This document shows positions 7,907 through 55,473 of a DNA stretch of 64,000 bases, piece by piece; position 1 is the first letter of the stretch, and each line of letters starts with the position of its first letter. The notes beneath the pieces are model-generated. The model was not told the origin of the DNA. It saw only the letters and a list, made by a program, of their open reading frames with translations, and searched no databases. The DNA lies in NCBI GenBank assembly GCA_029220445.1, contig GCA_029220445.1_3666.1; one strand, written 5' to 3'. The translations under genes and the position numbers were made by a program. The stretch comes from a phage.

Positions 7907-8098
7907 ATGAATGTCGAACAAGTTAGAAAGGTATTGGCGGTACTGCGTTATCATAATCATAGAAAGGTCATAGACGATCCTGATTATGTCGATTCAAACC
8001 TGGAAGAGGATACACTACAAGCCATAAGTAACATGCAAGAATTGCTAAAGCGCATGACAGAGAAAAACCGACCGGACTACATAGGCGAAAAAATATAA
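7907..8098 (+). CDS. hypothetical early protein (63 aa)
   Basis: ORF followed by intrinsic terminator. Confidence 0.5.
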   Translation: MNVEQVRKVLAVLRYHNHRKVIDDPDYVDSNLEEDTLQAISNMQELLKRMTEKNRPDYIGEKI

Positions 8099-8112
8099 TA
8101 TTTATAAACTAC

Positions 8113-8144
8113 AAAACAGGGCTTGCAATGGTCCTGTTTTTTGT
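8113..8144 (+). terminator. intrinsic terminator (acaggg-loop-cctgt + TTTTTTG)
   Basis: Stem-loop plus T-run after ORF 7907-8098. Confidence 0.65.
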
Positions 8145-8225
8145 TATACTTATTCCACGGCAGGCACCTGGCGACGGGAGGAGACAATCACCGGGCCTGC
8201 CTGTCATATAAGAACTATAAAAACC

Positions 8226-8254
8226 GTTGACATCTGCCATGGGGTGGGGTAACA
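8226..8254 (+). promoter_or_regulatory. sigma70-like promoter (TTGACA-N17-TAACAT)
   Basis: Hexamers followed by leader hairpin gggcaaaagtgccc. Confidence 0.5.
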
Positions 8255-9809: not shown

Positions 9810-10399
9810 GTCTGCTCTTCCCCCTACCATAAACGGCCCTACCTGGCAAGTGGAATAATTGACGAGCCATCAATCCCACACACTGTACAAATATACATGT
9901 AAAATAGCTATTGCATAACCTTTCATTGTGTGGTAGCAGGGCTATTTTTACCCGTTTTCCCTTCCAAAATTGCACGTAATGCCGCTATTGCACAAATTTT
10001 AACCTGATGCAGATCTTCAATATCTTGTCAACAAATAAAAATTCTTATAAGTCATACACTTACACCAACACAAAAGCGTTTTCTACGTGAAAAATCGAGT
10101 ATAACTATAGCCGCCAGATCTCAGAATTTACGTACGCTCACCATTCTATAGCCTGCTAAGTATTTATTCCAACCATAGAATAATGGAATAGTCAATACCT
10201 GCATAAAATAATTATTCGTTTAAATTGCATAACATAAATCAGCCAGGGTGTCAACATTTTTCGTAAACAGTCCGAAATTATCGCTGTGAATTATCATAAA
10301 CAGAGAAATCTTTAGTCGTCTAATGTTTACTGTACGTTACTATACTGACTGGAATCATTAGATGACTAAGAGAAAGATAAGAAATAATTAACAATACAA

Positions 10400-11160
10400 T
10401 TATTTTATCTGTAACAATAAGGCAACTATGCAAACGAATGGCATGGCGCGACGGAGTCGCGACATAATATAAAAGCAGTAACCATCACCCCCGTGATAGT
10501 TTGTCTGCAAACTATTAATCAGATCATAGTTGCCTTGTATTTAGTTAATCATGACATAACAAGCAAGGCAACTATAGATCTGCTAATAGTTGCCCTGCTT
10601 TTATATTATGTCACCTATTGTAAACCAGTTAATTGTCAGCTTGTTGGCTGTTAGCTTGTCAATTGTTATCTTGTTAATTGTTTTCATGCAAACGAATGGC
10701 ATGGCTTATCATCTCTGTGTAAACAGTCAATCATGTAAATGATAAGTATGTTAACAGTTATCCATGTAAACTATTAGACATGTAAACTATTGAGAATGTA
10801 AACAGTAAAGGGCGTGAACAGTAAGCGAGGGAATAGTAATAGCGTGAATAGTGACAGCGTAAACAGTCAGGCATGTCAATTAAGTCTAAAGTGTCAAAGG
10901 TGTCATATTATGTCACCAGTATGCCCAGTATGTCAGACAAGTTTTTCTCCTCTTTGTCAAGTGCTGCATGAAAAATTTACAAGCTGGTATGGTAGCATTT
11001 TTGCGGTCCTGTTTACATTCAGTAATGTATGTATAATCCTTGTTGTGTGGGCGCTTAGACGTCTAGACGGTTGGAAGTCCACAGGTCAATATCTAATCTA
11101 TCGGCTGCTAACTATATCCCACACAAATAGTAAGAAATATAATTGTTATGTGTGTAAACA
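10400..11160. repeat. iteron/palindrome array in gene-free region (GGCAACTAT x4 in inverted pairs; 20-bp direct repeat ATGCAAACGAATGGCATGGC x2; ~10 copies of GTAAACAGT/ATGTAAACTATT-type iterons)
   Basis: Direct and inverted repeats read from sequence; no credible ORF; candidate replication origin or regulator-binding array. Confidence 0.6.
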
Positions 11161-11459
11161 GTAACTCATGTTATCAATCCCTGTATGTATCGCCAGTGGT
11201 GCGCATAATGGGTATTATGTTAAATTGCCCGTAATGATAATGGTTCTCACAATGATATGTATTCTCATTCCCCCACACAAAATAGATTGCAAATGTTGTG
11301 CCACTGTGTGAACGGCCTCACCTATTAATTTGCCTCACTGCCTCGATATTTGAGAATTGTTATAAGAATGAGAATGATTCCCATTTCGTCCGCCTGGCAG
11401 CACTCCTGTAGGACAAGCACAAAATCGTGGCATAGCTGGACCTGTTCAGATATTTCTGG

Positions 11460-11700
11460 CTGGCTCTTCAGGTCTGTGTGGGAAAAGCCAACCCCCTCCG
11501 GCGGCGGGGAGGGTGTCAATTAAAAAATTTACGGGGTATATGAAGCGCTCTTCAGGTAAGGCATGTACTATGGGATGAAACCCTCTTCAGGCAATGATAT
11601 TTGTGGGTGTGATATTTGCTGGAAAGCCAGATATGACGGGACTCCCGGCGGGGCAGGGGTAGTACAGACAGGGAAAATATGGGGATGTAGTTGGGTGAAT
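11460..11700. repeat. GC-rich palindromes (ccctccggcggcggggaggg; cccggcggggcagggg) with recurring CTCTTCAGG motif
   Basis: Motif at about 11463, 11547, 11583 and again near 11996; region lacks ORFs. Confidence 0.45.
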
Positions 11701-12355
11701 TGATCGGGCAGGTAGAGTATGGAATATGTTACAAGTATGTTAAATATGGAGGGTGAATATCTGCAGGATTTGTGTGTAAAATCAAAGACTTAAGTAGTGT
11801 TGTGGTATTTTCTATAAATAATTCAAGTTTAATAGGTAATATTTGTCTCTATCCACTTTGTGTGGTAAACAAATTCAAATGAGATTGGTTTACAAGTGTA
11901 TACATAATATACAAATTAAAGATACAAGAAACCCCCCCTCCCCCTTCGGCTACCATTCACCTTTTCCTCTGACTGGTACTTAAACACTTATTCAGACTCT
12001 TCAGGTTATCACCCATATACCATATGGCAGTGACTGGTGTCCTCCGGCCCCTCTTTCGTCACCCGTCCGCTTCGCCATGCTAATGCCATAGCCAAATGTT
12101 CGGTTGTTCACCCTGTTCACTCAGGTGTATCTCCATACCCCTTCAAACCGAAGAGAACAGAAAACCCGAATTACTCGGTAAAAGAAAAGAGAAGAACTTA
12201 ATTTTATCAGGATAGGCAAGAATGTCAAGGCATGACTGCTCACTAAACAAGCAAACAGTCATGTGTGGGAGGTAAGTGATTGTGGTGGTAGGAAATTTAG
12301 TTGAAAGATGTGTTATAGGTGCTTCCAGCACTTTAGCCTGGCAGCTAATTGTGTG

Positions 12356-12571
12356 TCAGTCCAGCGGTTCATCCTCTACTTCACTGAAATCAATGTTCAT
12401 GGTCTCTTCCCAACCATCGATCTCAGCACAAGAGTGGAGTTCTTTAGGGTTTACTCCCAAAGCCTCAGCAACAGAGTCTATATTTAACACCTCTGGCAGG
12501 TATGATTCATCGAATTCAAGGTAAATCAGGCCACGAGTGTTGTCAACTCCACCAAATATTTCTATCTTCAT
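12356..12571 (-). CDS. small acidic protein (72 aa), member of MK[IV][KE]-start acidic family
   Basis: ATG 12571 with AGGAGA RBS (track start 12637 is upstream extension); acidic C-terminus. Confidence 0.45.
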   Translation of the reverse strand: MKIEIFGGVDNTRGLIYLEFDESYLPEVLNIDSVAEALGVNPKELHSCAEIDGWEETMNIDFSEVEDEPLD

Positions 12572-12691
12572 GAAATCTCCTCTGGAAATGAGAGTGTGAA
12601 CAGGGTTTATACGTTCCAATGCACTGGAATTATGCACGTTTGCCTCTTCAGACCATGCTTTAGCATGAGGAACCTGTGTGGGCTCGGTGCT

Positions 12692-13105
12692 TCATAGTCT
12701 ACCACCCCTGAACTCTTCGTGCTCAGGCATAATAGAGAACCAGATATCTACGATGTCTTCCCACGTTAGGTCATCAGCCTCAGGATCTACCTGGAGCGAA
12801 GATGGAGAATCTTCAGAATCGAAGTTTTCCTCTTTCACTGGCTCAGCCAAGGGACATATAGTCACTCCTTTGGATGTCTCTTCAAATGCATGTGTGTTTA
12901 TCATGTTCCACCCGTGAGTATTCCGGCAACAGCCACTATGGACGTAATGATCATCAGGATCACCACCAAAACCTCTGACAATGTTTTCATTGTGTGTCCC
13001 ATATTCTCCAAACGATGTGTGGATACTATCACTGGAGCGGAAATGTGTCAACAGAAACGTCGCGAGGGTTTGGTTAAAATCCGAGCGTATGGTGATTTGG
13101 GTCAA
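12692..13105 (-). CDS. hypothetical protein, start uncertain (up to 137 aa)
   Basis: ORF with acidic C-terminal half; no clear RBS; may start at internal Met (12904). Confidence 0.3.
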   Translation of the reverse strand: MTQITIRSDFNQTLATFLLTHFRSSDSIHTSFGEYGTHNENIVRGFGGDPDDHYVHSGCCRNTHGWNMINTHAFEETSKGVTICPLAEPVKEENFDSEDSPSSLQVDPEADDLTWEDIVDIWFSIMPEHEEFRGGRL

Positions 13106-13264
13106 AACGGACGTGCGTTCTCGCTACGCTCGAAATATAAAGTTGTTTGTAGGAAGCTCTTAAACGCTCTGTAATGAGATTAACTACCCAAGGTATTCAA
13201 TCGTGCACCAGACAAAGAAAAGGACGCCACAGAGCGTCCTAGGTGTCTTAAATTTGATATTTTG

Positions 13265-13564
13265 CTATACCCATGAGGGCTTATCAAGGTTGGAGTAGCT
13301 AAAAGGTGTCAAAAGGTGACTGTCAAAATCTCTCAAACTATCCAGATCTTTTTCCTCGTCCTGGCACCATCTGTGCCTACATTTATTGTTGTAGTGCATA
13401 GAATGCATAGCGTTCTGCAACTTAACAGGTACAAGTGATTCAGGAGTAGATAGTATTGTTGGGTATGCCAGAACCACCTCAAACAGTGGAAACACATCGA
13501 AACTAAAGTCTACCTCTGCAGAGGTTGATGGCATATAGGAGTATTTAGCCGCCTTTGTAGACAT
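13265..13564 (-). CDS. hypothetical protein (99 aa)
   Basis: ATG 13564 with GAGGTGG RBS. Confidence 0.45.
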   Translation of the reverse strand: MSTKAAKYSYMPSTSAEVDFSFDVFPLFEVVLAYPTILSTPESLVPVKLQNAMHSMHYNNKCRHRWCQDEEKDLDSLRDFDSHLLTPFSYSNLDKPSWV

Positions 13565-13572
13565 AATCCACC

Positions 13573-13899
13573 TCACACAGGTTTGATAATACCTTTACCG
13601 AATAACTCTTTGTATCTAATCTTGTCCGGATCCCACTCCTTGATAATTTCGAAGACAATATCCAACCCTGGGATAATCACTTCTCCAGTGTCAAGTTTGG
13701 CAAGAACAAAACCGGAAGGTTGAATGGTTTCCCAGTTGCGACGATTGGAATAGAAGACCTCGAAAATATCACCGACCTTGATCTGTTGATCAAGATGTTC
13801 AAGATTCTCTTTCATATAGACGCAGCGTATTTTTCGTGCAGGCCATAGACCACCTGCATCACGTTCATTCAATTCTTTTACAGTGATCGGTATACCCAT
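13573..13899 (-). CDS. hypothetical protein (108 aa)
   Basis: ORF on minus strand. Confidence 0.5.
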   Translation of the reverse strand: MGIPITVKELNERDAGGLWPARKIRCVYMKENLEHLDQQIKVGDIFEVFYSNRRNWETIQPSGFVLAKLDTGEVIIPGLDIVFEIIKEWDPDKIRYKELFGKGIIKPV

Positions 13900-13920
13900 C
13901 TCAAATCTCCTTCATAGATA

Positions 13921-13950
13921 GTAAAAAGAGGGGCCCAAGCCCCTCTTTGT
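13921..13950 (-). terminator. intrinsic terminator for minus-strand transcripts (agagggg-loop-cccctct + T-run on minus)
   Basis: GC hairpin followed by T-run on minus strand after ORF 13953-14258. Confidence 0.55.
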
Positions 13951-13952
13951 CA

Positions 13953-14258
13953 TTATTCTACAGAGCGTTTGAACAGAATGTCTGCCTCAGACATGTGCTC
14001 AACCTCTTCTTCGATTTTAGCTCGACGTTTTTCAGCCTCATAGCGAATATCGAACTCGGTAGCCACCAGAGATTTGATGAATTTAGGAGAATACAGGTGA
14101 TCCTGCTTCTCAACGAGAATGATATCCTTAATGGCATCTTTCAGATCTTTAATCTGAAGCTGGAGTTCCACCAGTTCTTCGATTGTTTTGCGAAGGCGAT
14201 CACGTTCTGCAGTGTCAGAAGGAAGAGAGGTGAACAGTTCAACTTTAGATTTAGCCAT
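13953..14258 (-). CDS. hypothetical coiled-coil protein (101 aa)
   Basis: ORF; heptad-like charged sequence. Confidence 0.5.
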   Translation of the reverse strand: MAKSKVELFTSLPSDTAERDRLRKTIEELVELQLQIKDLKDAIKDIILVEKQDHLYSPKFIKSLVATEFDIRYEAEKRRAKIEEEVEHMSEADILFKRSVE

Positions 14259-14286
14259 AGTAAGAGTCTCCTTATGTTGTTTTAAA

Positions 14287-14538
14287 TTAACGTTCTACAA
14301 AAATACCGTTCAGTTCAATAACCAAGAATTTCTGGTCTTCACTATCGTCTCGTGCCAGCACCTCACAGACGTATCGGTCATCCCCATCATCATCGCAGTC
14401 AAATACAAGACTGAGGACTTTATCATGATAAACTTTCGCCACTACCGCCTCGTAAGTATTGCCGATTGTGAATCCAAGATAATCTCCAATGCATTTGACA
14501 ACAACATGATCACCAGCATTCAAGTCAATCTTCGTCAT
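14287..14538 (-). CDS. small acidic protein (84 aa)
   Basis: ATG 14538 with AAGGAG RBS; acidic stretch DCDDDGDD. Confidence 0.5.
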   Translation of the reverse strand: MTKIDLNAGDHVVVKCIGDYLGFTIGNTYEAVVAKVYHDKVLSLVFDCDDDGDDRYVCEVLARDDSEDQKFLVIELNGIFVER

Positions 14539-14693
14539 TACTGCGCTCCTTGGGTAATAATACTGTATGTAAAACTTTAACCAGAGATGTGAATAACGCC
14601 CCAAAACACACCGATAGCGCTAAAACAGACAAGGCCATCATTAAAGCTTCAGTAAAATCAGTCACCCCTCACCTCTTGTTAGTCACTATACTG

Positions 14694-14957
14694 TCATTTA
14701 TCCTTGCCGTCAAGAACTTTTTTAAATCTTTCAGGGATATCGCCTGTTCTTAGATAGCTCATGACCTCACAAGGTTCCCACTTAAATTTCTTACAAAGCA
14801 GGGCGGCTGAGATTGTTTCATTGCGAAAAGAAAGGATATTAATATCCCATTCTGAGAACCCCAACTTCCGAAGGGTAGCTACAGAAATCCTCACCGCAAC
14901 CCAGCAGCAAAAACATGCAACAAACGCCACTGCTATAACCCACATCAGGATGTTCAT
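14694..14957 (-). CDS. small membrane protein (87 aa, N-terminal TM helix)
   Basis: Hydrophobic N-terminus WVIAVAFVACFCCWVAV. Confidence 0.45.
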   Translation of the reverse strand: MNILMWVIAVAFVACFCCWVAVRISVATLRKLGFSEWDINILSFRNETISAALLCKKFKWEPCEVMSYLRTGDIPERFKKVLDGKDK

Positions 14958-15046
14958 ACAAGCACCTTACTGAAATACAAGACACAGTGTTAAGGTTACT
15001 GACCAGCAAATAATTAATAGTGCCGTTGCAACCTTGGCAAGATTTA

Positions 15047-15334
15047 TCATAGTGCCTCTAAGATTTCATATCCTTCTGGTCGGAATACAAGCCACTCCGT
15101 GGCTCCGTTTGGTCGATACGCTTTATACAGAACAACCTGATCTCGGCACATGCACATGGCTACATAGTTTTCATCCACACCTGCAGCCTGCATTGCATCT
15201 TCTTCTCCGGCAACCGCCTTGCTTACAACTTCCTTGGTAGGAAGGTGTGCGATCAGCTCGTCACCATCATTAATTCCAAAATGGCTTAGTTCTCCATTGG
15301 TATCTTTAATCTTAATCTTAACCAGATCTTTCAT
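15047..15334 (-). CDS. small acidic protein (95 aa), acidic-family member
   Basis: ORF; MKDLVKIKIK start, ends YEILEAL. Confidence 0.5.
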   Translation of the reverse strand: MKDLVKIKIKDTNGELSHFGINDGDELIAHLPTKEVVSKAVAGEEDAMQAAGVDENYVAMCMCRDQVVLYKAYRPNGATEWLVFRPEGYEILEAL

Positions 15335-15663
15335 TAGTCTTTCTCCAGGTTCAAAGGCCCTAAGATTTCATATGCCAGATTAGAAGCTACCAGAGGATCT
15401 TCTGCATCTTTAGTATTGTACCACCCGTGAATAACCAGAGCCCCACTTTGTTTAATGTCCAACTGGAACTCTTCTGCCGTTTCCTCATCCAGCTCCAAGA
15501 TTTCCATAAGGTATTTGATGTTAGGAAGGTATGCAGCTGTTACAGTTCCCTCCACCAAACCTTCGGGCCAACCTACATCTGGATGACAAGTAGGAACCAG
15601 GTTGGTCAGCTTAATGGTGTACGCTTTTTCTGCACGAGCCTTCAGTAACGGGTCAATCTTCAT
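15334..15663 (-). CDS. hypothetical acidic protein (109 aa)
   Basis: ORF; start/stop overlap with neighbours. Confidence 0.5.
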   Translation of the reverse strand: MKIDPLLKARAEKAYTIKLTNLVPTCHPDVGWPEGLVEGTVTAAYLPNIKYLMEILELDEETAEEFQLDIKQSGALVIHGWYNTKDAEDPLVASNLAYEILGPLNLEKD

Positions 15664-16013
15664 TATTCGTCCTCCTCTTCGGTGCCTGCTTCCAGCAATA
15701 AGTTAAGAATATCTTCTGCACAAGGCTCATAGAACTCTTGGCCTTCATTATCGATGATTTTGTAGTCATCTCCACGAATAATCAGAGGATCACTCTCAAA
15801 ATTATCAAGACCTTTAACAACGACAACACGATCAATTGCCATCATTGTAAGAACTTTATCGACATCTTCCTCTGCTACACCATACTGCAGCAGAATGTCT
15901 TTAGTAGGAGGAACAGCATCCACCACAACACCGTTACCAAAACCTTCCGGGAGTTTAGCTAAAATATCTTCCGGAACCACATTCACATCAAAACCGGTAA
16001 TTTCTACTTTCAT
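15663..16013 (-). CDS. small acidic protein (116 aa), EGFGN-motif family member
   Basis: MKVEITG start; PEGFGNGVVVD motif shared with ORF 16014-16274. Confidence 0.5.
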   Translation of the reverse strand: MKVEITGFDVNVVPEDILAKLPEGFGNGVVVDAVPPTKDILLQYGVAEEDVDKVLTMMAIDRVVVVKGLDNFESDPLIIRGDDYKIIDNEGQEFYEPCAEDILNLLLEAGTEEEDE

Positions 16014-16274
16014 TTACAGCACCTCTTCGTCAACTACTTCATAAAAATGGCCTGGGATTGCAATAGCGTTCTCACCTTCACCTACAAACACAGTTCCGTC
16101 AAGAATCAACATCATAAGAATTTCTGGAATATCCTCTTCCGGAACGTTGCCAAAACCTTTAATCAGCGTGTAGGTTGGAAGATTTACCTCTAAGATGTCA
16201 CCATCTTTAGAGCGGAAATCAACACCATCCTGAATCTCTGCCATTTCAAGGTTTTTCAGTTTAATCTTCATCAA
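16014..16274 (-). CDS. small acidic protein (86 aa), EGFGN-motif family member
   Basis: MKIKL start; KGFGNVPEEDIPEIL motif; ends EVVDEEVL. Confidence 0.5.
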   Translation of the reverse strand: MMKIKLKNLEMAEIQDGVDFRSKDGDILEVNLPTYTLIKGFGNVPEEDIPEILMMLILDGTVFVGEGENAIAIPGHFYEVVDEEVL

Positions 16275-16350
16275 TCAGTCTCCCGTCTTGTTAAGATGAA
16301 GGTATTATTTCACACAGGGTTGGTGTTGTCAACACCTGTGTGCAAGAAAA

Positions 16351-16746
16351 TTACTGAAACAGTGCGGATAAATTACCTTCTGGTGGGAACTTATCTGCCA
16401 AAAACGGTGTTAGCACAGTAGCCTTCTGAAGATCTGGGGTCCACTCGTTGTTCAGAACATCCCAGTAGTACGCAATGTTGCTGTGTGGGTGCCGCATTAC
16501 GAACTTTTTCCCTTCGTAGTCATCTGAAACCTCTACAGAAGAAATAACAACAGAATCTTCAAGGGTTTCTTCATAGAAAGATCCGCCTTCAAATTTCCAA
16601 CGAGATGCAAGAGCCCCTGCCTTGAACGCTGCAGATAACGGACTGTCGGCAAGAACATACATTTCTTGCACTCTGTCGCTGCGATCTTTACTTCTTACGT
16701 TGTACACAGTATCTGAGCTATACTCAACACGGTATAGGCTTACCAT
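16351..16746 (-). CDS. hypothetical protein (131 aa), paralogue of ORF 18553-18951
   Basis: Shared C-terminal block HP-S-YW-WTP with 18553-18951. Confidence 0.5.
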   Translation of the reverse strand: MVSLYRVEYSSDTVYNVRSKDRSDRVQEMYVLADSPLSAAFKAGALASRWKFEGGSFYEETLEDSVVISSVEVSDDYEGKKFVMRHPHSNIAYYWDVLNNEWTPDLQKATVLTPFLADKFPPEGNLSALFQ

Positions 16747-17078
16747 TACCGCACCTCCTCAATAACTTCCACATCTGAACCTACCACAAATGCAAAAGGA
16801 CAGGTTTCATGAAAGACATCCGGATCGCCGCCAAGCTTGCTAACAATTTCTCCACCACTAATAAACACAAGCTCACCGATATTCATCAGATTGCTGAAAT
16901 AGTATCCATAATGATTGAAGAATGCAGCAGGGTCAGGTAGACTAGTAGCCTCAAGTTCTACATCTGTTGAGATTACTTTCTTATCATAACCTCTCGCCTT
17001 CTGAGATGCAAGATCCGCAGAATCTTCAGGCGACCGGAGATGCACAGGAATTGTTTCACCAATAAAGCGTACTTTCAT
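16746..17078 (-). CDS. small acidic protein (110 aa)
   Basis: ATG 17078 (MKVRFIGE) preferred over TTG at 17105; ends VEVIEEVR. Confidence 0.5.
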   Translation of the reverse strand: MKVRFIGETIPVHLRSPEDSADLASQKARGYDKKVISTDVELEATSLPDPAAFFNHYGYYFSNLMNIGELVFISGGEIVSKLGGDPDVFHETCPFAFVVGSDVEVIEEVR

Positions 17079-17082
17079 ATTA

Positions 17083-17346
17083 TCACCCAACAACCATAGC
17101 TTCAAAAGGGGTCATGAACGAATAAACGGCATCATCATCTGCTTCAGGGAATGCTCCCAAAGACTTCATGTCTGAGCCCTTGACAAATACAAGGTTTTGA
17201 TCAAAAGCTTCTTGGGGATCAATCCGATACATATTTCGTAGAATATCGCTTACCTCCTCATCAAGAGGTGAGTATGCTGTGCACGTTTTTCCGATCAAGC
17301 TTTGAGAATCAGGGTATCCACCTGAAGTTTTAAAATAAACAATCAT
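17083..17346 (-). CDS. hypothetical protein (87 aa)
   Basis: ORF on minus strand. Confidence 0.5.
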   Translation of the reverse strand: MIVYFKTSGGYPDSQSLIGKTCTAYSPLDEEVSDILRNMYRIDPQEAFDQNLVFVKGSDMKSLGAFPEADDDAVYSFMTPFEAMVVG

Positions 17347-17437
17347 ATAGTATCACCTCTGGTAAGAGATTGGGATTCCTTTCCCACAAATAATTACAAA
17401 TCTTCCTTATCGAGGAAGTATGCTAATCCAAGCAGGA

Positions 17438-17707
17438 TTATTCCTCTACAATCTCATACACATCAGGAGTTACAATCAACTCTTCTCCGTTACCCGGTGC
17501 AACAAACACCACCAAACCTTCAGGTGTGTGCTTTTTAGCCATCTCGATAACATCTTCGCGCAGAGCTGGCTCCATCAGATCAAAACCTTCACCCAGGGCA
17601 TCACTAACCACCTTCATATAGTCCACTGGTTGTGCTTCAACAATCATGCCTTCAACCAGTCCACAGTTTTTGTCTGCCAGCTCAGTTTTGAATAATTTAA
17701 TTTTCAT
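17438..17707 (-). CDS. small acidic protein (89 aa), acidic-family member
   Basis: MKIKLFK start; GEGFDL motif; ends YEIVEE. Confidence 0.5.
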   Translation of the reverse strand: MKIKLFKTELADKNCGLVEGMIVEAQPVDYMKVVSDALGEGFDLMEPALREDVIEMAKKHTPEGLVVFVAPGNGEELIVTPDVYEIVEE

Positions 17708-17844
17708 TTAGAGGTCTCCTCAATTATTTGATATTAATAGCCGTAACCTAACACATTAACTACAATTGCGATTGCAAACATAATTTCAAAGCATGCAATC
17801 TCTACATTTGGGACTAATTTCTTAATCACACCCATTGTAGCACC

Positions 17845-18162
17845 TCATTCTCCAAAGTCAATCTTTACTTTGCCTTTCCCCTTACCTTTCTTTCCACCAC
17901 ATTTAGCCAGCTGACGTGCTGCAACATCTACCATACGGTCAGTTGCCTCGTAAGCATCACTGCCTTTAGCTTTGGCAATAACTTCTTTTCCAGAATTGTC
18001 AAAAATGAACGCCATAACTTCCTGGTGATCATTTTCAACTTTTACACTCACACGTGCATAGTTGGCAGAGGGGTGCAAACGCTCCAGCTTAGACATTTTG
18101 TGGGAAATGAAAGACACCATACCTTCAGTGATTTCTACGTTGCCAGTGATTTCAATTTGCAT
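17845..18162 (-). CDS. hpf: ribosome hibernation promoting factor / RaiA (YfiA) family homologue (105 aa) with Gly/Lys-rich tail
   Basis: N-terminus MQIEITGNVEITEGM and later KLE, KVE, ARQLAK blocks align with E. coli HPF (MQLNITGNNVEITEAL ... LARQLTK) from memory. Confidence 0.7.
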   Translation of the reverse strand: MQIEITGNVEITEGMVSFISHKMSKLERLHPSANYARVSVKVENDHQEVMAFIFDNSGKEVIAKAKGSDAYEATDRMVDVAARQLAKCGGKKGKGKGKVKIDFGE

Positions 18163-18244
18163 AACGTGTTCCTTTTAAAGAAGAGGGAACCAAACCCTCT
18201 TTGAAAACAATGATACTAAATCTGAAGCGTTGTGTCAACAGTTT

Positions 18245-18535
18245 TTACAGATTGTTGTCGATAGTATTTAAAATATCTACAGCAAGATCTGCCATTTTTC
18301 GAACATACTCTGCAAACTCAACAGGATCCTTGATCAAAGAATTTACAGGGTCGTACCCTAGAGCGTTCAAAATGGCTGCAGCATCTACAACCTTTTCATC
18401 ATTTGCAAAGATCTCTCCGTCAAACTTATAGGTCCATTTTGAGTCAATCTTGGCAGGGCATGGCTGGTCCATGCTTGTTACACCATCGTCTTTAACCTCT
18501 CCTGCGTTATCAATATTCAGAACTAAATCCATCAT
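18245..18535 (-). CDS. hypothetical acidic protein (96 aa)
   Basis: ORF on minus strand. Confidence 0.5.
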   Translation of the reverse strand: MMDLVLNIDNAGEVKDDGVTSMDQPCPAKIDSKWTYKFDGEIFANDEKVVDAAAILNALGYDPVNSLIKDPVEFAEYVRKMADLAVDILNTIDNNL

Positions 18536-18552
18536 AGTGGCACCTCACTGTT

Positions 18553-18951
18553 TCAGTTTAGCTTTTCTTCAACAACCCCATAGCTTGGGACAGAATCAAG
18601 AGCTTTCTGGTTTAAAAGTGGTGTAGCAGAATCTGCAAACGGTGTCCAAGTTTTTGTTCTGGAATTCCAGTAATGCTTCACTCTGGAATCTGGATGCACT
18701 ATAACAAAAACTTTTTCACTTGTCAACACATTAATTTCTTCTACACCCTTGCTGATAATTTCTCCGTCATAGCCCCCAGTCTGGTATCCTTCGTACCAGG
18801 TTCTTGCATAGGCATAGCCAGCCTGCCAGCATGCAGCCTCCTCCGAGGTGGAGACTACGTAGAAGTCCTTCTCAAATTCCGGAATACGCCCTTGCTTTAC
18901 GCTCCAAGCTCCGCGAATTTTCATTGTAACTTTGAACAGTTTATTTTTCAC
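18553..18951 (-). CDS. hypothetical protein (132 aa), paralogue of ORF 16351-16746
   Basis: Shared motif VHPDSRVKHYWNSRTKTWTP vs RHPHSNIAYYWDVLNNEWTP. Confidence 0.5.
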   Translation of the reverse strand: MKNKLFKVTMKIRGAWSVKQGRIPEFEKDFYVVSTSEEAACWQAGYAYARTWYEGYQTGGYDGEIISKGVEEINVLTSEKVFVIVHPDSRVKHYWNSRTKTWTPFADSATPLLNQKALDSVPSYGVVEEKLN

Positions 18952-18963
18952 AACGGTTACCCA

Positions 18964-19218
18964 TCACAGCTCTACAATATCTGCATCTGACCCTACCCCA
19001 AAGGCATAATAGGACTCTTCCCCGAAATAATATTCAGGTGCACCAGCGGTGATCAGGTCTGATCCTAAGATAAACACCACGTTGTGGCCTACATAACTGT
19101 GATGTTGCCGCACAGGATCATCCCACGGCAACCCTTCAAAGTATACCGCAGGGACGACCTTTCCTTTCAGGAAGGATTGCCCCAAGTAGACGTTAGAATC
19201 AAGAATTTTAACCTTCAT
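18964..19218 (-). CDS. small protein (84 aa), MKVK-LDS / GK-V / DL-AGA paralogue family (A1)
   Basis: Aligns by eye with 19208-19435 and 22767-23000. Confidence 0.55.
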   Translation of the reverse strand: MKVKILDSNVYLGQSFLKGKVVPAVYFEGLPWDDPVRQHHSYVGHNVVFILGSDLITAGAPEYYFGEESYYAFGVGSDADIVEL

Positions 19219-19435
19219 GATCGTCCTCCACTATCTCTACATCCTCACCTAGGGCAAAGTTGTAGGTCCACTGACTGTCAAAGCATTCCTGAGATGCACC
19301 AGCGGCAATAAGATCTGCCCCTTTTATTTTTAAAAGGTCAGGGTAATCTTCGTTAGGGACAGCAGTAAACACTTTCCCCACTAAAGGCTCCTGACCAATA
19401 TAGAATCTTGAATCTAAAACTTTAACTTTCATCAA
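19208..19435 (-). CDS. small protein (75 aa), paralogue family A2
   Basis: MMKVKVLDSRFYIGQEPLVGKVFTAV ... DLIAAGAS; overlaps A1 start. Confidence 0.55.
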   Translation of the reverse strand: MMKVKVLDSRFYIGQEPLVGKVFTAVPNEDYPDLLKIKGADLIAAGASQECFDSQWTYNFALGEDVEIVEDDHEG

Positions 19436-19719
19436 CGGTCTCCATCAGGTGGTTGTGGGACGTAAACACTGTTACGAATATCGTCCGCAGTATAGTAATA
19501 AGTGTCTCCAACCCTATCTCTGGCTGCAATGTACTCTGCTATACCAATAAGTGCCATTGATTTGGTGGCGTATCTTCCCCACTCGTTAGCTCCCCAGTAG
19601 AATTTAGACCAATAGGGAATAAGACCGAACAAATATACCTTTTGACGAACTTCCCAGTAAGTGCCTTTCCCGACAAGTTTAAACTCAACTTCACCACTGT
19701 TAATCTTTTTCATTATCAA
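19432..19719 (-). CDS. hypothetical aromatic-rich protein (95 aa)
   Basis: ATGA overlap with neighbours. Confidence 0.5.
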   Translation of the reverse strand: MIMKKINSGEVEFKLVGKGTYWEVRQKVYLFGLIPYWSKFYWGANEWGRYATKSMALIGIAEYIAARDRVGDTYYYTADDIRNSVYVPQPPDGDR

Positions 19720-20012
19720 TCTCCCTCTACCGTGGTCGGATTGTCAGTAAGAAATTGAGCATTAGCTGGAGGCACACCTGACATTTTCCACACGACCATA
19801 AGTTTGTAACCAGGCACTCTATTAAGCGCAGATCGAGTAGAGTTTGTGCACGTATACTTTCGCTTTCCAAACCCGTTCTCCATCATAATCCAGTACCCAG
19901 TATCTTTGTCACCAGGTATTGGTAGACCACCTTCATCAACCCACTGAATGGACCACGGCACGATGGCTACAGCTTTATATTTAAACTTTTTAAACCACTC
20001 AAAAAGTTTCAT
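19716..20012 (-). CDS. hypothetical protein (98 aa)
   Basis: ORF, overlapping start/stop. Confidence 0.5.
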   Translation of the reverse strand: MKLFEWFKKFKYKAVAIVPWSIQWVDEGGLPIPGDKDTGYWIMMENGFGKRKYTCTNSTRSALNRVPGYKLMVVWKMSGVPPANAQFLTDNPTTVEGD

Positions 20013-20197
20013 AATTCAGCCTCGCTTGGCAACTCTTCCACCTTAACATGCCGAAAAGTGTTACCGTAATGGTTGATCCATGACATCAGCTCACTTTCTT
20101 GCTCTTCCTCTGGGATGAACTCTCGAATACTGACAAGTTTTAAGAAAACCCAATCACAATCTGCACCCATTCTACCAGACAGACAATAGTGCTTCAT
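20009..20197 (-). CDS. hypothetical protein (62 aa)
   Basis: ORF, overlapping start/stop. Confidence 0.4.
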   Translation of the reverse strand: MKHYCLSGRMGADCDWVFLKLVSIREFIPEEEQESELMSWINHYGNTFRHVKVEELPSEAEL

Positions 20198-20216
20198 AAA
20201 AACCCTCCATCCTGGT

Positions 20217-20417
20217 TTAGAATACTGCCTCTTTTAATGATCCAAGGAGCAGCAGGTGTGAAATCTGATCCACATCCATGGTAGATTCAATCTCCTCTTT
20301 TTTGAAAGGTTCTCGGCAAAACAGTACTACATTTGGGTTTTCGCTACGCACTATATAATACAGATCGTTCAAATCATTCTCATAGTAGGTATTAAATTTA
20401 AGAATTTTGTCACTCAT
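20217..20417 (-). CDS. hypothetical protein (66 aa)
   Basis: ORF on minus strand. Confidence 0.4.
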   Translation of the reverse strand: MSDKILKFNTYYENDLNDLYYIVRSENPNVVLFCREPFKKEEIESTMDVDQISHLLLLGSLKEAVF

Positions 20418-20701
20418 TTTCTAATCCTCTTCTTAGATTTTTGTGCAGAAACGCTTTCTGCAATACGAGACAGGCGTTCTTCTGAAGCTTTACCTACCCC
20501 AGGTTTCTTGAGCGGGTTATCTTTATGACCGCAATCCAATTGGATGCTAGATACCTCCCCAACCTTGTAAGTCAATTCTAACAAAAGGTTGTCGTCCTTG
20601 TCAAATGTTTTTACGATAAATTTTTTATCGTCCTCCTGAACTTCATACCTAGTACCTGCAGTATACAGCATGGTGCCATCAGTGTAGGATATCCAAATCA
20701 T
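20414..20701 (-). CDS. hypothetical basic-tailed protein (95 aa)
   Basis: ORF, overlapping start/stop. Confidence 0.5.
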   Translation of the reverse strand: MIWISYTDGTMLYTAGTRYEVQEDDKKFIVKTFDKDDNLLLELTYKVGEVSSIQLDCGHKDNPLKKPGVGKASEERLSRIAESVSAQKSKKRIRK

Positions 20702-21045
20702 TGCACCTCCTTCTGCTGCAACAGCATTAACTCTTTGTTGGAAATCTTTACTGCTGTCTTTATTGTTCCATCTTCACGGAACCACGACCAGAATTCTACA
20801 GTGTCACCACTATCAAGCAAGGCATGACCATGGTAAAAATCCTTGTCCTTAGACAGTTTCTCATCTATATCTGCATCGACACACTCGTGATCCATAGCAT
20901 TTTGCCTGAATGCATCGGTTATGCCAATGCATGCCTTGCTCTCAAGACTGGTATATCCGATATCTTTTAATTCAGTTTCCCAAGTCCAGTATCCTACAAA
21001 AGCCACAACAGCTACCCACATTAATATCGATTTAATCTTTGACAT
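20698..21045 (-). CDS. membrane-anchored/secreted protein (115 aa)
   Basis: N-terminal hydrophobic segment ILMWVAVVAFVGYWTW. Confidence 0.5.
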   Translation of the reverse strand: MSKIKSILMWVAVVAFVGYWTWETELKDIGYTSLESKACIGITDAFRQNAMDHECVDADIDEKLSKDKDFYHGHALLDSGDTVEFWSWFREDGTIKTAVKISNKELMLLQQKEVQ

Positions 21046-21105
21046 TCTCTCTACCTCTTTCTTAATTTGTTTAATTATGGCACATCCTTTGTGCCTTGTT
21101 GCACA

Positions 21106-21567
21106 CTACTTAAACAACAGTTCAAAATAGTGCAAAATTAACAGAAGTTGAATTACGCCTAGCACAACAGCAAGTATGTTAATCTTAGAATCAAAAAACT
21201 TCTTAACTTTTACCCTAAAAGGTTCCTTAATGTCCTTTACGATCCTATCTATAGATGACCTCATATCCCTGATTACCATCCTGAACATTAAAGACGGATG
21301 ATCCCTCTCTGTAACGGAATCGAAAACATACTCTCTTTGATCACAAGGGCCGCCAGCTCTGCGTATTAACCTCTCCACAGAGACCTCGTACGACACACCT
21401 GTAACGTAATCATCTATGACAAGGAGTGACGGGTCTTTATCGTCCAAGGGTATCAAAGTTATCTTTCCAGATTTTGTTAAAATTTCTCCTTTTTCAAGTA
21501 AGGTGTACCAATGCTCTCTGCCAAGACTGTTGAGGCACGTTTTTACATATTTAACAAACATCGTCAC
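21106..21567 (-). CDS. tail-anchored membrane protein (153 aa)
   Basis: C-terminal hydrophobic helix ILAVVLGVIQLLLILHYF. Confidence 0.5.
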   Translation of the reverse strand: MTMFVKYVKTCLNSLGREHWYTLLEKGEILTKSGKITLIPLDDKDPSLLVIDDYVTGVSYEVSVERLIRRAGGPCDQREYVFDSVTERDHPSLMFRMVIRDMRSSIDRIVKDIKEPFRVKVKKFFDSKINILAVVLGVIQLLLILHYFELLFK

Positions 21568-21749
21568 CCCTCATCGCACGTCTGATATAACCACTCTATA
21601 AAATCTTGATACCATTCGCCCTCTGAGCGCTCCGTAGGCCAATAATCTTCACCCTCTCGTGCATTAAAATCTGAGTATTCAACTTTCCACTCCTTTACCA
21701 GCTCGTGGAGAAGGTTTTCAGCCTGCTCTAAAGATTTATTTTTTGCCAT
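21564..21749 (-). CDS. hypothetical acidic protein (61 aa)
   Basis: ATG 21749 with AAAAAGGAGACAGCA RBS (track start 21767 is an extension). Confidence 0.45.
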   Translation of the reverse strand: MAKNKSLEQAENLLHELVKEWKVEYSDFNAREGEDYWPTERSEGEWYQDFIEWLYQTCDEG

Positions 21750-21968
21750 TGCTGTCTCCTTTTTCAAGATAGTTATACATCAGAACTGCACCACCTAAGA
21801 TGGCTACCAGTAACAATACCCCAGATAGCATCTCAATAAACATGGCTTGAAACACTGGAAGGTCTCCCTAAATTAACGCACCATTTTAAATACATGCTCT
21901 TTTCCCATAAAGGTGCCTGGCTAAGATCTGCGTAGAACGCAATCTCTTTAAGAACAGTATAAACAGTT

Positions 21969-22205
21969 TTAGGTGCGGTCTCCATCCCTACTCTCCTTTT
22001 TCTCCTTACGGATATTCTTGTAGTAATCAACTAGGCACATTATTACAATGAAGATAACAATAGGCCAAAAAGGTGCAGCAGTGATGATGGTGATAAAATC
22101 ATCAAACTCCACCTTTCGTCTAGCTAAGATGCATACACCTGTCAAGAATACCGCTGTTATAACGGCTATTACCAGGTAACCTATTAGCACAGCATTTATA
22201 CTCAT
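21969..22205 (-). CDS. small membrane protein (78 aa, two TM helices); holin-like topology but unassigned
   Basis: Two hydrophobic helices, charged C-terminal tail. Confidence 0.45.
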   Translation of the reverse strand: MSINAVLIGYLVIAVITAVFLTGVCILARRKVEFDDFITIITAAPFWPIVIFIVIMCLVDYYKNIRKEKKESRDGDRT

Positions 22206-22236
22206 TAGTCCTCCCTTTTGTAGGTTAAATTATATA

Positions 22237-22770
22237 CTACAGATGGTTGCTTATGGTGTCAAGAAAATTATCTCGTTCTTTCTCGGAGTTTTCACGGGTG
22301 TAGCTGAAAAACATATCTAGAATAACCTTATTGATATATTCCAGCTCCTCTGTGTTCAGGTACTTAGCAGGATCTACAATGACATCCCAAATATCATACA
22401 GACCACACTCATGATATCCATAACGCCACTCAATTGTCAAGCTGAGCGGCAAATCTTTACCGTCACAAACAACCTTCCATCTACATATGTTGGTATCTGG
22501 GCGTATCTGTGCACGGTATACCTGTACAAAATCCAATTTGAATTTGAGGTATTCGTCATGCAATTTAAGCACAAAGCTCTCGATTTGTGGAGACACTTTT
22601 GCAGCAAACTGTGCGTATTTGTATTTGCACTGGATGATCTTTCTGCGTTTTGCAGTTAAATTTTTTGCCGCCAGTTGTTCTTCAGTGTATCTCCACCTAC
22701 GATCAACAAACGCAACAGGGTCTTTGTCCCCATAGAGGTCTTCCCAGTTAATCAGAAGCATACCTGTCAC
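22237..22770 (-). CDS. hypothetical protein (177 aa)
   Basis: ORF on minus strand. Confidence 0.55.
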   Translation of the reverse strand: MTGMLLINWEDLYGDKDPVAFVDRRWRYTEEQLAAKNLTAKRRKIIQCKYKYAQFAAKVSPQIESFVLKLHDEYLKFKLDFVQVYRAQIRPDTNICRWKVVCDGKDLPLSLTIEWRYGYHECGLYDIWDVIVDPAKYLNTEELEYINKVILDMFFSYTRENSEKERDNFLDTISNHL

Positions 22771-23000
22771 TCCTCCACAACTTCAAGGCCTTTACCGCCT
22801 CGCTCTGGCAGATTACTTAAAGATAGGTAATACATATAATCAGGAGAGATCCTGCCAGACTCTGCACCTGCAGATAGTAAATCTTTTCCCTTAACCATGA
22901 CAACATTATCGTTTGCAGATAGTCGTTTTGCTTCCACAATTTTACCAACGCAGTCAACCAAGGAAGGGTACCCTAAATCTGTAAGAAATTTAACTTTCAT
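22767..23000 (-). CDS. small protein (77 aa), paralogue family A3
   Basis: MKVKFLTDLGYPSLVDCVGKIVEA ... DLLSAGAES; ends LEVVEE. Confidence 0.55.
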   Translation of the reverse strand: MKVKFLTDLGYPSLVDCVGKIVEAKRLSANDNVVMVKGKDLLSAGAESGRISPDYMYYLSLSNLPERGGKGLEVVEE

Positions 23001-23039
23001 GCTACCTCCTACTTCTACCGTCCCTGGTAAGATAAATTA

Positions 23040-23438
23040 TTACTGAACAAAGCGCGGAGCTGGGAAGGATAACTCTTCTAAAGAGAAGATTTCATTCCCC
23101 ACAATCCATGTTGCAGGATCATCTGGGTTGACTGGATAGATAATCATCACCTCGTCAGTGTTACATACCCGCTTTTTACCTGTGGAGTCATCAGCAACCA
23201 GCATGCGCGGTTCTTCAGAAATGCACAGGTAGCCTCCTCGGCCCACTGTTCCTTCCACAGGGTCTTGCCCTTTGATCACGATGATTATCTTCTCTCCTGA
23301 GGCGATATTACCTTGCACACTCACCGTTTGACCAACCTTGGATGTGCCAATCTTAGTGACTTCGAACATTACATCCCTAATTACTGTTGCATAATCGCCA
23401 GACACTTTCTTACCTTCTTTAGTGATCTCAATCTTCAT
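23040..23438 (-). CDS. hypothetical protein (132 aa), MKIEIT start
   Basis: ORF on minus strand. Confidence 0.55.
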   Translation of the reverse strand: MKIEITKEGKKVSGDYATVIRDVMFEVTKIGTSKVGQTVSVQGNIASGEKIIIVIKGQDPVEGTVGRGGYLCISEEPRMLVADDSTGKKRVCNTDEVMIIYPVNPDDPATWIVGNEIFSLEELSFPAPRFVQ

Positions 23439-54660: not shown

Positions 54661-54735
54661 GCCCTGTTAGCTTAGTGGATAAAGCAGCGGCCTTCTAAGC
54701 CGTTGACACTGGTTCGAGTCCAGTACGGGGTGCCA
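54661..54735 (+). tRNA. tRNA-Arg (anticodon UCU)
   Basis: Manual cloverleaf: acceptor gccctgt/acggggt, anticodon loop cttctaa, T-loop ttcgagt, CCA encoded. Confidence 0.8.
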
Positions 54736-54739
54736 AATT

Positions 54740-54826
54740 GGGGAGTTATCCCGTAGAGGTAGCGGTGTAGACTGTAAATCTATTGTCATTGCGACTCGGG
54801 TGGTTCGACTCCACCACTCCCCACCA
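54740..54826 (+). tRNA. tRNA-Tyr (anticodon GUA), type II with long variable arm
   Basis: Acceptor ggggagt/actcccc, anticodon loop ctgtaaa, T-arm ggtgg-ttcgact-ccacc, CCA encoded. Confidence 0.7.
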
Positions 54827-54940
54827 AATTTATATTTTTAGATGCATAAATAATACAGATAATGGCATTGATATTTATCGTCGTTTATACTAGTCACTAA
54901 CTGCTCGAAAATCAGTGTCATTATCAGTATAATTTATAAA

Positions 54941-55031
54941 GGAGGGTAGGGAGCAATGGTGCTCAAGCGGTCTTGAAAACCGTCCCGTTGAGGATGACTC
55001 GATGATGGTTCGATTCCATTACTCTCCGCCA
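54941..55031 (+). tRNA. tRNA-Ser (anticodon UGA), type II with long variable arm
   Basis: Acceptor ggagggt/actctcc, anticodon loop cttgaaa, T-loop ttcgatt, CCA encoded; position 8 is A (unusual). Confidence 0.65.
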
Positions 55032-55129
55032 CATTGTTGACCTTGTAATTAAGCGAAAGCCGGAAGCAGAACCGGATTATCAAATGTTACAGTCGTCATC
55101 GCCGACTAGCAACATGGTCAACATACTGA

Positions 55130-55226
55130 GCTAGGTAAGCCCTTTGGCAAGGGCGAGGATTTTTAATCCTGAAAATAGACGAGGTAGTCGTTGAATACAT
55201 AGGTGGTTCGATTCCATCACCTAGCA
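55130..55226 (+). tRNA. atypical tRNA-like element (97 nt): normal acceptor, D and T arms, 4-bp anticodon stem with loop tttttaa (UUU, Lys-like) and ~30-nt extra arm; may be a pseudogene
   Basis: Acceptor gctaggt/acctagc perfect; D arm gccc-tttggcaa-gggc; T arm ggtgg-ttcgatt-ccatc; no CCA. Confidence 0.35.
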
Positions 55227-55233
55227 CCTTTTT

Positions 55234-55309
55234 GCTGATGTAGCACAATCGGTAGTGCAATTGATTTGTAATCAATAGGTTGTAGGTTCAAGTCCTGCCA
55301 TCAGCACCA
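55234..55309 (+). tRNA. tRNA-Thr (anticodon UGU)
   Basis: Acceptor gctgatg/catcagc, D stem gcac/gtgc, anticodon arm attga-tttgtaa-tcaat, CCA encoded. Confidence 0.8.
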
Positions 55310-55310
55310 A

Positions 55311-55385
55311 GGCCCTGTAGCTGGAAGGTTCAAGCAAGCGACTCATAATCGCCAGACGGTGGTTCAATTCCACCCAGGGCCACCA
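55311..55385 (+). tRNA. tRNA-Met (anticodon CAU; elongator, or Ile2 if lysidine-modified)
   Basis: Acceptor ggccctg/cagggcc with G1-C72, anticodon loop ctcataa, T arm ggtgg-ttcaatt-ccacc, CCA encoded. Confidence 0.7.
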
Positions 55386-55396
55386 AATAGTAAATA

Positions 55397-55473
55397 CTCC
55401 GCGTAGCTCAGCTTGGTAGAGCGCCTGATTTGGGATCAGGAGGTCGAGTGTTCGAATCACTCCGTGGAGACCA
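55397..55473 (+). tRNA. tRNA-Pro (anticodon UGG)
   Basis: Acceptor ctccgcg/cgtggag (C1-G72 as in tRNA-Pro), anticodon arm cctga-tttggga-tcagg, T-loop ttcgaat, CCA encoded. Confidence 0.8.

Follow-up and report, generated by a model that had tools for sequence, protein, structure and literature searches.

In this study we show that 12 of the roughly 33 small genes in a block at positions 12356-23438 of a phage contig (GCA_029220445.1_3666.1 of GenBank assembly GCA_029220445.1; its 64,000 nucleotides are called the window here) belong to three families of paralogues, A with five genes, B with two and C with five. All copies evolve under purifying selection, and throughout the genus Vequintavirus the set is fixed. 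We consider it somewhat probable that the encoded proteins are fixed accessory host-interaction proteins, each paralogue having its own partner, and that they probably act as stoichiometric binders of host proteins. Over these 11 kb the sequence is 99.7% identical to Escherichia phage PDX, which identifies the source as a Vequintavirus (an rV5-like E. coli myovirus), and 95-98% identical to more than 100 further members of the genus; of the 123 matching phage records, 116 extend over 80% or more of the region, with identities of 90-99%. The initial annotation, made from the sequence alone, had described a head-to-tail array of small open reading frames (ORFs) on the minus strand, and this description holds: we count 33 ORFs of 46-174 aa, tightly packed and with coupled starts and stops. 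The counterpart in rV5 runs from gp158 to gp121 and comprises 38 annotated coding sequences. The annotations of rV5 and of the BASEL phages call all of them 'hypothetical' apart from a ribosome hibernation promoting factor (HPF), a doubtful 'transcriptional regulator' and one 'virion structural protein'.

The families emerged from comparisons at three levels. The 35 minus-strand genes were translated and compared all against all by phmmer and BLASTP (with these 35 proteins as the database), iterated hidden Markov model (HMM) searches were run over all 466 ORFs of the window, and one profile per gene, built from orthologues in six related genomes, entered 595 profile-profile comparisons with hhalign. 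One of the six genomes, L006, is that of a divergent relative from a metagenome, which keeps the gene order at an amino-acid identity of 29-97%. Genes are named below by their first position, and all family genes lie on the minus strand. Unrelated gene pairs gave hhalign probabilities below 15%. All ten pairs within family A (22767, 19208, 18964, 17083 and 16746) were among the top 31 of the 595 pairs, nine of the ten pairs within family C (17438, 16014, 15663, 15334 and 15047) were among the top 44, and the two genes of family B (16351 and 18553) were joined at 97.4%. The iterated searches over the window ORFs found no family member outside 15-23 kb. A Pfam scan of 19 block proteins gave nothing, and the 12 family members had no match at E up to 0.1 except a sub-threshold chance match to LRAT.

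Much of this grouping had been anticipated. The initial annotation had picked out 18964, 19208 and 22767 as clear paralogues and 16351-16746 and 18553-18951 as a pair sharing an HP-S-YW-WTP block, and both assignments are confirmed by phmmer and by common matches in PHROGs. It had also assembled a looser group on the basis of an MK[IV][KE][IL] start, an EGFG-type motif and a VEE-type C-terminus. Four genes of this group (15047, 15663, 16014 and 17438) do belong together, in family C, whereas 16746 is a member of family A and 12356 is linked to neither; moreover two genes, 15334-15663 (C) and 17083-17346 (A), had been overlooked. The product of 12356-12571 (minus strand), an acidic protein of 71 aa, falls outside all families: its best match is a trivial MKIEI N-terminus, and phmmer, HMM iteration and hhalign gave no significant link. 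A candidate fourth family, made up of 18245-18535 and the C-terminus of 22237-22761, reached E ~1e-3 between single sequences and was rejected at a profile-comparison probability of 1.2%.

Family A has a compact core of three genes. The 77-aa protein of 22767-23000 (pI 5.4; rV5 gp122, bas54_0166), the 74-aa protein of 19208-19432 (pI 4.2; gp135, bas54_0159) and the 84-aa protein of 18964-19218 (pI 4.7; gp136, bas54_0158) match phrog_5009 at E 8e-36, 2e-38 and 3e-32, respectively. By phmmer 18964 matches 19208 at E 8e-13 and 19208 matches 22767 at E 7e-6, the latter two reaching 97.2% by hhalign. The genes 18964-19218 and 19208-19432 share an 11-nt overlap. The remaining two members are more distant. 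Gene 17083-17346 (87 aa, pI 4.1; gp142, bas54_0152) is found by the family A HMM at E 1e-6 and by phrog_5009 weakly at 1e-4; it reaches 89-91% with 22767 and 18964 in hhalign and 98.6% against a broad family A profile. The divergent gene 16746-17078 (110 aa, pI 4.6; gp143, bas54_0151) has no direct phrog_5009 match, and only its C-terminal part is drawn in by the iterated HMM; in profile comparison it reaches 91% with 18964 and 96.6% (E 5e-10) against the broad profile. Some related genomes carry 70-aa hybrids (P0014, P0018) with the N-terminus of 19208 and the C-terminus of 18964, which points to unequal recombination between these adjacent paralogues.

Both members of family B, 16351-16746 (131 aa, pI 4.7; rV5 gp144, bas54_0150) and 18553-18951 (132 aa, pI 7.8; gp137, bas54_0157), cover the entire 131-position profile of phrog_7379, at E 2e-66 and 1e-73, and match each other by phmmer at E 5e-11. 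L006 has one B copy and no counterpart of 18553. Among 5.8 billion proteins the family forms only 4 clusters, and a search of the PDB by sequence gave no significant match for it. Family C consists of 17438-17707 (89 aa, pI 4.3; gp141, bas54_0153; family C HMM E 1e-26) and four tandem genes: 16014-16271 (85 aa, pI 4.1; gp145, bas54_0149), 15663-16013 (116 aa, pI 4.05; gp146, bas54_0148), 15334-15663 (109 aa, pI 4.5; gp147, bas54_0147) and 15047-15334 (95 aa, pI 4.7; bas54_0146). The hhalign probabilities are 90.6% for 15663 with 16014, 84.4% for 15334 with 15663 and 56% for 17438 with 16014. The weakest link is that of 15047, at 35% with 16014, 28% (over the full length) with 17438 and 24% with 15334; by phmmer it matches 15663 at E 1e-3. 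The protein of 15663, with an acidic C-terminal extension and a net charge of -21, is conserved at 90-100% identity over 119 phage records, and its L006 orthologue matches both 15663 and 15334. In a metagenomic protein of 98 aa (P0087) the N-terminus is DUF7399 (Pfam E 3e-11) and is followed by the C-terminal half of a 15334-family protein.

The AlphaFold models of one member of family A (19208) and one of family C (16014) are confident, and both proteins are predicted to be small acidic single-domain SH3-like beta-barrels. According to the models the families would differ chiefly between strands 2 and 3. Here family A is predicted to carry no insert in its minimal form 19208, 14 aa in 18964, 20 aa in 17083 and about 50 aa at the same site in 16746, and family C a helical hairpin. 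Small SH3-like and KOW beta-barrels (Spt5 KOW 4zn3, PsaE, the retroviral integrase C-terminal domain and eukaryotic SH3 domains) are among the nearest known counterparts of the modelled folds, and in a viral structure library the same fold was found in small proteins of T4-like and T1-like phages, all of them uncharacterised. When a family A profile of 55 sequences was compared with 30 block genes, its four best matches outside A were all family C genes, ahead of 26 unrelated genes; by our own calculation the chance of this is ~2e-4. On this ground it is likely that A and C are remote homologues of common ancestry. The claim of the initial annotation that at least ten proteins share a recognisable signature thus stands at the level of the fold, together with a weak N-terminal signal, and does not stand at the level of profiles, where A and C are not significantly related (3-15%). 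In PHROGs, phrog_5009 and phrog_13367 correspond to family A, phrog_7379 to B, and phrog_12155, 12359, 12794 and others to C, all of 'unknown function'; 17083 (phrog_13920), 16746 (phrog_13661) and each C member are kept there in separate single-lineage families. The grouping into five and five genes and the shared fold are not recorded in PHROGs.

Repeated duplication in such a region had been taken by the initial annotation as the sign of an arms-race locus. Our data on copy number and selection do not agree with this. In a tblastn search of 50,697 phage records A and C occurred only in Vequintavirus, at 85-100% identity, and comparison of ~120 genomes revealed no variation in their copy number. 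Every A and C member, and one B copy as well, is matched one to one by an orthologue in L006; the orthologue pairs are joined at 98-100% bootstrap, and these one-to-one relations have been kept although synonymous divergence from L006 is saturated. Judged from these sequences, the duplications are older than the split from L006. Pairwise dN/dS ratios of 0.08-0.14 (A), 0.04-0.14 (B) and 0.09-0.16 (C) are no higher than those of other block genes (0.10-0.18). Structural variation was limited to rare fusions of 19208 and 18964, the P0087 chimera and a 1.76-kb deletion in phage Bas54 (MaxBurger). This phage naturally lacks 19776-21531, a segment with six small genes outside the families, the first being 19716-20012 (its 3' end) and the last 21106-21561; the six are hence dispensable in nature.

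The same selection analysis excludes the idea that the genes are functionless duplicates or over-called ORFs, left over from tandem duplication and free of selection. Such an idea could draw on the lack of any annotated function and on the dispensability of most of the genes on both hosts tested so far (see below). It is hardly credible, however, with dN/dS of 0.04-0.16 in every family, with one-to-one orthologues retained in L006, and with confident models for proteins whose genes are so tightly packed and coupled.

A further question is how the present order arose, as the sequence A-A-B occurs twice, in 19208-18964-18553 and in 17083-16746-16351. It might be possible that a three-gene block was duplicated, so that the two runs are copies of one cassette; the family order is identical in both, and both B copies show the same kind of host-dependent phenotype, depletion on the clinical strain CFE311 described below. 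Nevertheless we regard this as unlikely. A neighbour-joining tree joins the adjacent copies (19208 with 18964 at 50%, 17083 with 16746 at 60%), the positional pairs receive just 2-5% support, and the second B copy is missing from L006. A block origin could be masked by gene conversion between neighbours, and exchange of this kind is seen in the recombinants P0014 and P0018. Since the tree joins adjacent copies and not positional counterparts, local tandem duplication or gene conversion would explain the A-A-B pattern better than block duplication.

Family A was also traced beyond the genus. Among 5.8 billion proteins A formed 36 clusters and C 54, and when 1.84 billion representatives were searched exhaustively by HMMER, the family A profile matched 67 clusters at E up to 1e-3. 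Their proteins are mostly 65-90 aa long with the signature MKVKLL..GY...GK.V.A....G.DLI.AGA....Y.F, and these distant relatives, too, fall in phrog_5009 or phrog_13367. In a few, the domain occurs twice or three times in tandem, or is joined to DUF3310. The named carriers are phages of Proteus, Aeromonas, Pseudomonas, Pantoea, Morganella, Klebsiella, Citrobacter and Iodobacter, with nearly always a single copy; contigs with distant relatives are just 0.5-2 kb long. One cluster (P0030, 309 member sequences) lies between the Q antiterminator and the holin in the E. coli lambdoid prophages L003, L004 and L005. In L003 and L004 the gene occupies 8001-8228, amid small unannotated genes, that is, in the moron slot of lambdoid phages. 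Its closest relative in the window is 22767, with 49% identity and grouped with it at 80% bootstrap. A two-gene module common to the block and the lambdoid prophages was considered and dismissed, as the YHECG motif on which it would depend spans only 7 residues and is probably due to chance. Given the single copies in unrelated phages and the position in the lambdoid moron slot, the family A domain is a scattered, mobile accessory element, and its expansion is specific to Vequintavirus.

Functional evidence comes from a 2025 preprint on transposon-insertion sequencing (HIDEN-SEQ) of phage Bas54 (MZ501093; bioRxiv 10.1101/2025.11.20.689424), whose genes map to the window at 88-100% protein identity. 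On E. coli K-12 all genes from bas54_0135 to 0168 were classed as 'non-essential' or 'intermediate' (its Ext. Data Table 8), the latter including bas54_0151 to 0153, and in most family members 80-100% of the TA sites carried insertions. The family genes are thus accessory on K-12, and their dispensability excludes a structural or replication role. Resampling on the uropathogenic clinical strain CFE311 gave 27 significant genes in the same study, four of them from families A and B. These are the orthologues of 17083 (bas54_0152; log2 fold change (log2FC) -7.16, adjusted p <1e-5), 16746 (bas54_0151; -6.17), 16351 (bas54_0150; -6.77) and 18553 (bas54_0157; -2.14, significant). On K-12 bas54_0150 was non-essential, with 25 of 25 TA sites occupied. 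The preprint leaves these four genes without discussion. It does treat a neighbour: bas54_0140, the orthologue (99% identity by blastp) of a non-family protein of 99 aa encoded at 13265-13564 on the minus strand, was depleted on CFE311 (log2FC -5.48) and proved by clean knockout to be one of two genes required against the predicted defence system DS-28 of that strain (bioRxiv 10.1101/2025.11.20.689424). This protein has no PDB relative by sequence and no sequence link to A, B or C. It resembles the family genes in being small, placed in the same block, non-essential on K-12 and, like four of them, depleted on CFE311, where it counts as conditionally essential; unlike theirs, its role is confirmed by clean knockout, whereas that of the family members rests on transposon-insertion sequencing. 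Together, dispensability on K-12, depletion of four members on CFE311 and the anti-defence role of the neighbour are in line with the general idea of the initial annotation, namely proteins that act on the host or its defences.

How might such proteins work? T7 Ocr, T7 Gp2, ArdA and T4 Arn are small acidic early phage inhibitors that act by stoichiometric binding. The families resemble them in being small, net negative, early-type in position and dispensable in permissive laboratory hosts. They differ in that no similarity in sequence or fold to these inhibitors was detected and in that the phages are unprotected from restriction, so the likeness is one of mode of action and not of membership. 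By analogy, the conserved barrel would serve as a scaffold that binds a host protein stoichiometrically, with the variable insert setting specificity. After duplication each paralogue may have taken on its own partner, either a component of a defence system or another strain-variable host factor. Host-specific roles on CFE311 would then fall to the members of the run 17083 (A)-16746 (A)-16351 (B) and to 18553, the second copy of B.

Several points weigh against this reading. Eight of the 12 family genes (all of family C, and 18964, 19208 and 22767) have no phenotype on K-12 or CFE311; among them, the orthologue of 17438 changed on CFE311 by a log2FC of -2.78, which is not significant, and that of 22767, non-essential on K-12, by +0.72. 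As 17083, 16746 and 16351 overlap or stand 4 nt apart, the first two could be depleted through local polarity on 16351; the authors of the preprint argue against widespread polar effects (bioRxiv 10.1101/2025.11.20.689424). The clinical data cover one host, CFE311, and for the family genes they consist of transposon insertions rather than clean knockouts. In the supplement (sheets S6 and S7 of Ext. Data Table 8) the sheet 'resampling_K-12_vs_CFE303' names the CFE311 input file and repeats its values identically, which leaves only one clinical host documented. The lambdoid copy lies in a late operon, and this implies a conflict with a strictly early role. Profile-profile comparison of A and C was not significant (3.2%, or 15% with the broader A profile), and the two families could have converged on the SH3-like barrel, which is a common fold. 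A more far-reaching version can be put forward only tentatively, and we think it rather unlikely: A and C might be an unrecognised class of scaffold-with-variable-loop inhibitors, each directed against a different factor of host immunity or host range, and 17083-16746-16351 might form a multi-component counter-defence module that is needed in uropathogenic E. coli.

An alternative to fixed accessory proteins with individual partners is suggested by the transcriptional setting. According to the rV5 genome paper, which leaves the paralogues unmentioned, these genes lie at the distal end of a single transcription unit, genes 82-163, with sigma70-type promoters (PMC3606486). Our promoter scan agrees with this: minus-strand sequences make up all of the eleven top sigma70-like matches, and several of them lie in intergenic gaps, including the annotated promoters P144 and P150. 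P150 (16304-16332, minus strand; TTGACA-17-AATAAT with an extended -10) separates the first family B copy from the tandem of four family C genes, and P144 (18210-18238, minus strand; TTGACA-17-TATCAT) stands upstream of the HPF gene. The latter (17845-18162, minus strand) encodes an HPF/RaiA homologue outside families A, B and C, named as such in the rV5 and BASEL annotations and recognised by PF02482 in its L006 orthologue; used as an anchor in a viral contig collection, it retrieved close relatives only. The block is thus the distal part of a non-structural, sigma70-promoter-driven transcription unit of Vequintavirus. From this position beside a phage HPF gene the barrels might act as general host-takeover factors that bind conserved machinery (RNA polymerase, the ribosome or NusG/Rho-type factors) and tune host physiology early. 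Strong conservation under purifying selection would fit a conserved target, and on K-12 bas54_0151 to 0153 fall short of full non-essentiality, being 'intermediate'. However, most members tolerate insertions at 80-100% of their TA sites on K-12, the clear phenotypes are specific to CFE311, and acidic proteins bind nucleic acid poorly. We therefore see host takeover as possible but not likely.

The acidity of the proteins invites yet another explanation. Block proteins have a median pI of 4.74 compared with 5.92 in the remaining window (p ~0.001), and 61% of them have a pI below 5 compared with 24% there; this test, together with the PHROG families of 'unknown function', supports the initial description of small acidic, duplicated and diverged proteins without a named family. 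Being small, very acidic (pI 4.0-4.7) and encoded in an early-type region, they might be anti-restriction proteins that mimic DNA, as the initial annotation had suggested, of the same type as Ocr and ArdA and multiplied against a variety of restriction systems. This proposal is very improbable: no family has a Pfam match, the modelled fold is predicted to be a compact barrel and not an elongated Ocr- or ArdA-like array of carboxylates, and the BASEL study found Vequintavirinae exceptionally susceptible to restriction-modification systems, apparently without effective protection (PMC8594841).

Some further observations concern genes and sequences around the families. Gene 13953-14258 bears the RefSeq label 'transcriptional regulator' and has sub-threshold Pfam matches alone, among them one to a GapR-like DNA-binding domain (E 0.04); with 86% identity in L006 it ranks among the most conserved block genes, and in the K-12 insertion data it is 'intermediate'. 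The adjoining region 9890-12355 (~2.46 kb, GC 0.38) is gene-free in the annotation of all relatives. Within it a 22-nt iteron-like repeat (GTAAACAGTCA..CATGTAAA.) occurs five times at 10719-11175, a direct repeat of 20 nt without mismatch stands at 10428 and 10686, and 10461-10478 and 10595-10612 form a perfect inverted repeat of 18 nt. The equivalent region of Bas54 takes no transposon insertions in HIDEN-SEQ (bioRxiv 10.1101/2025.11.20.689424). It is probably a replication origin or another essential cis-acting element. An Rfam scan of 9.7-24 kb gave no matches. Elsewhere in the window, ARAGORN predicts a 99-nt tRNA-like gene with a four-base anticodon (atcc) at 55130-55228, within a cluster of six ordinary tRNA genes (54661-55473). 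Moreover, 18 GenBank records MG0656xx ('Campylobacter phage' C2, C5, C15, A12a and others) are 96-98% identical to E. coli vequintaviruses over the entire 11 kb; judged by this identity, the host label Campylobacter jejuni of these records looks doubtful.

In conclusion, we sorted 12 of about 33 'hypothetical' genes into three families, two of which share a predicted fold, and this leaves fewer independent unknowns in a group of phages that are among those most often isolated on E. coli, that are candidates for phage therapy and of whose genome about one third is unannotated. Four of the genes, the orthologues of 17083, 16746, 16351 and 18553, may decide growth on a clinical strain and have been left aside in published work. 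If the barrels with variable inserts were indeed specific inhibitors, they would represent a compact natural scaffold for the binding of bacterial proteins.

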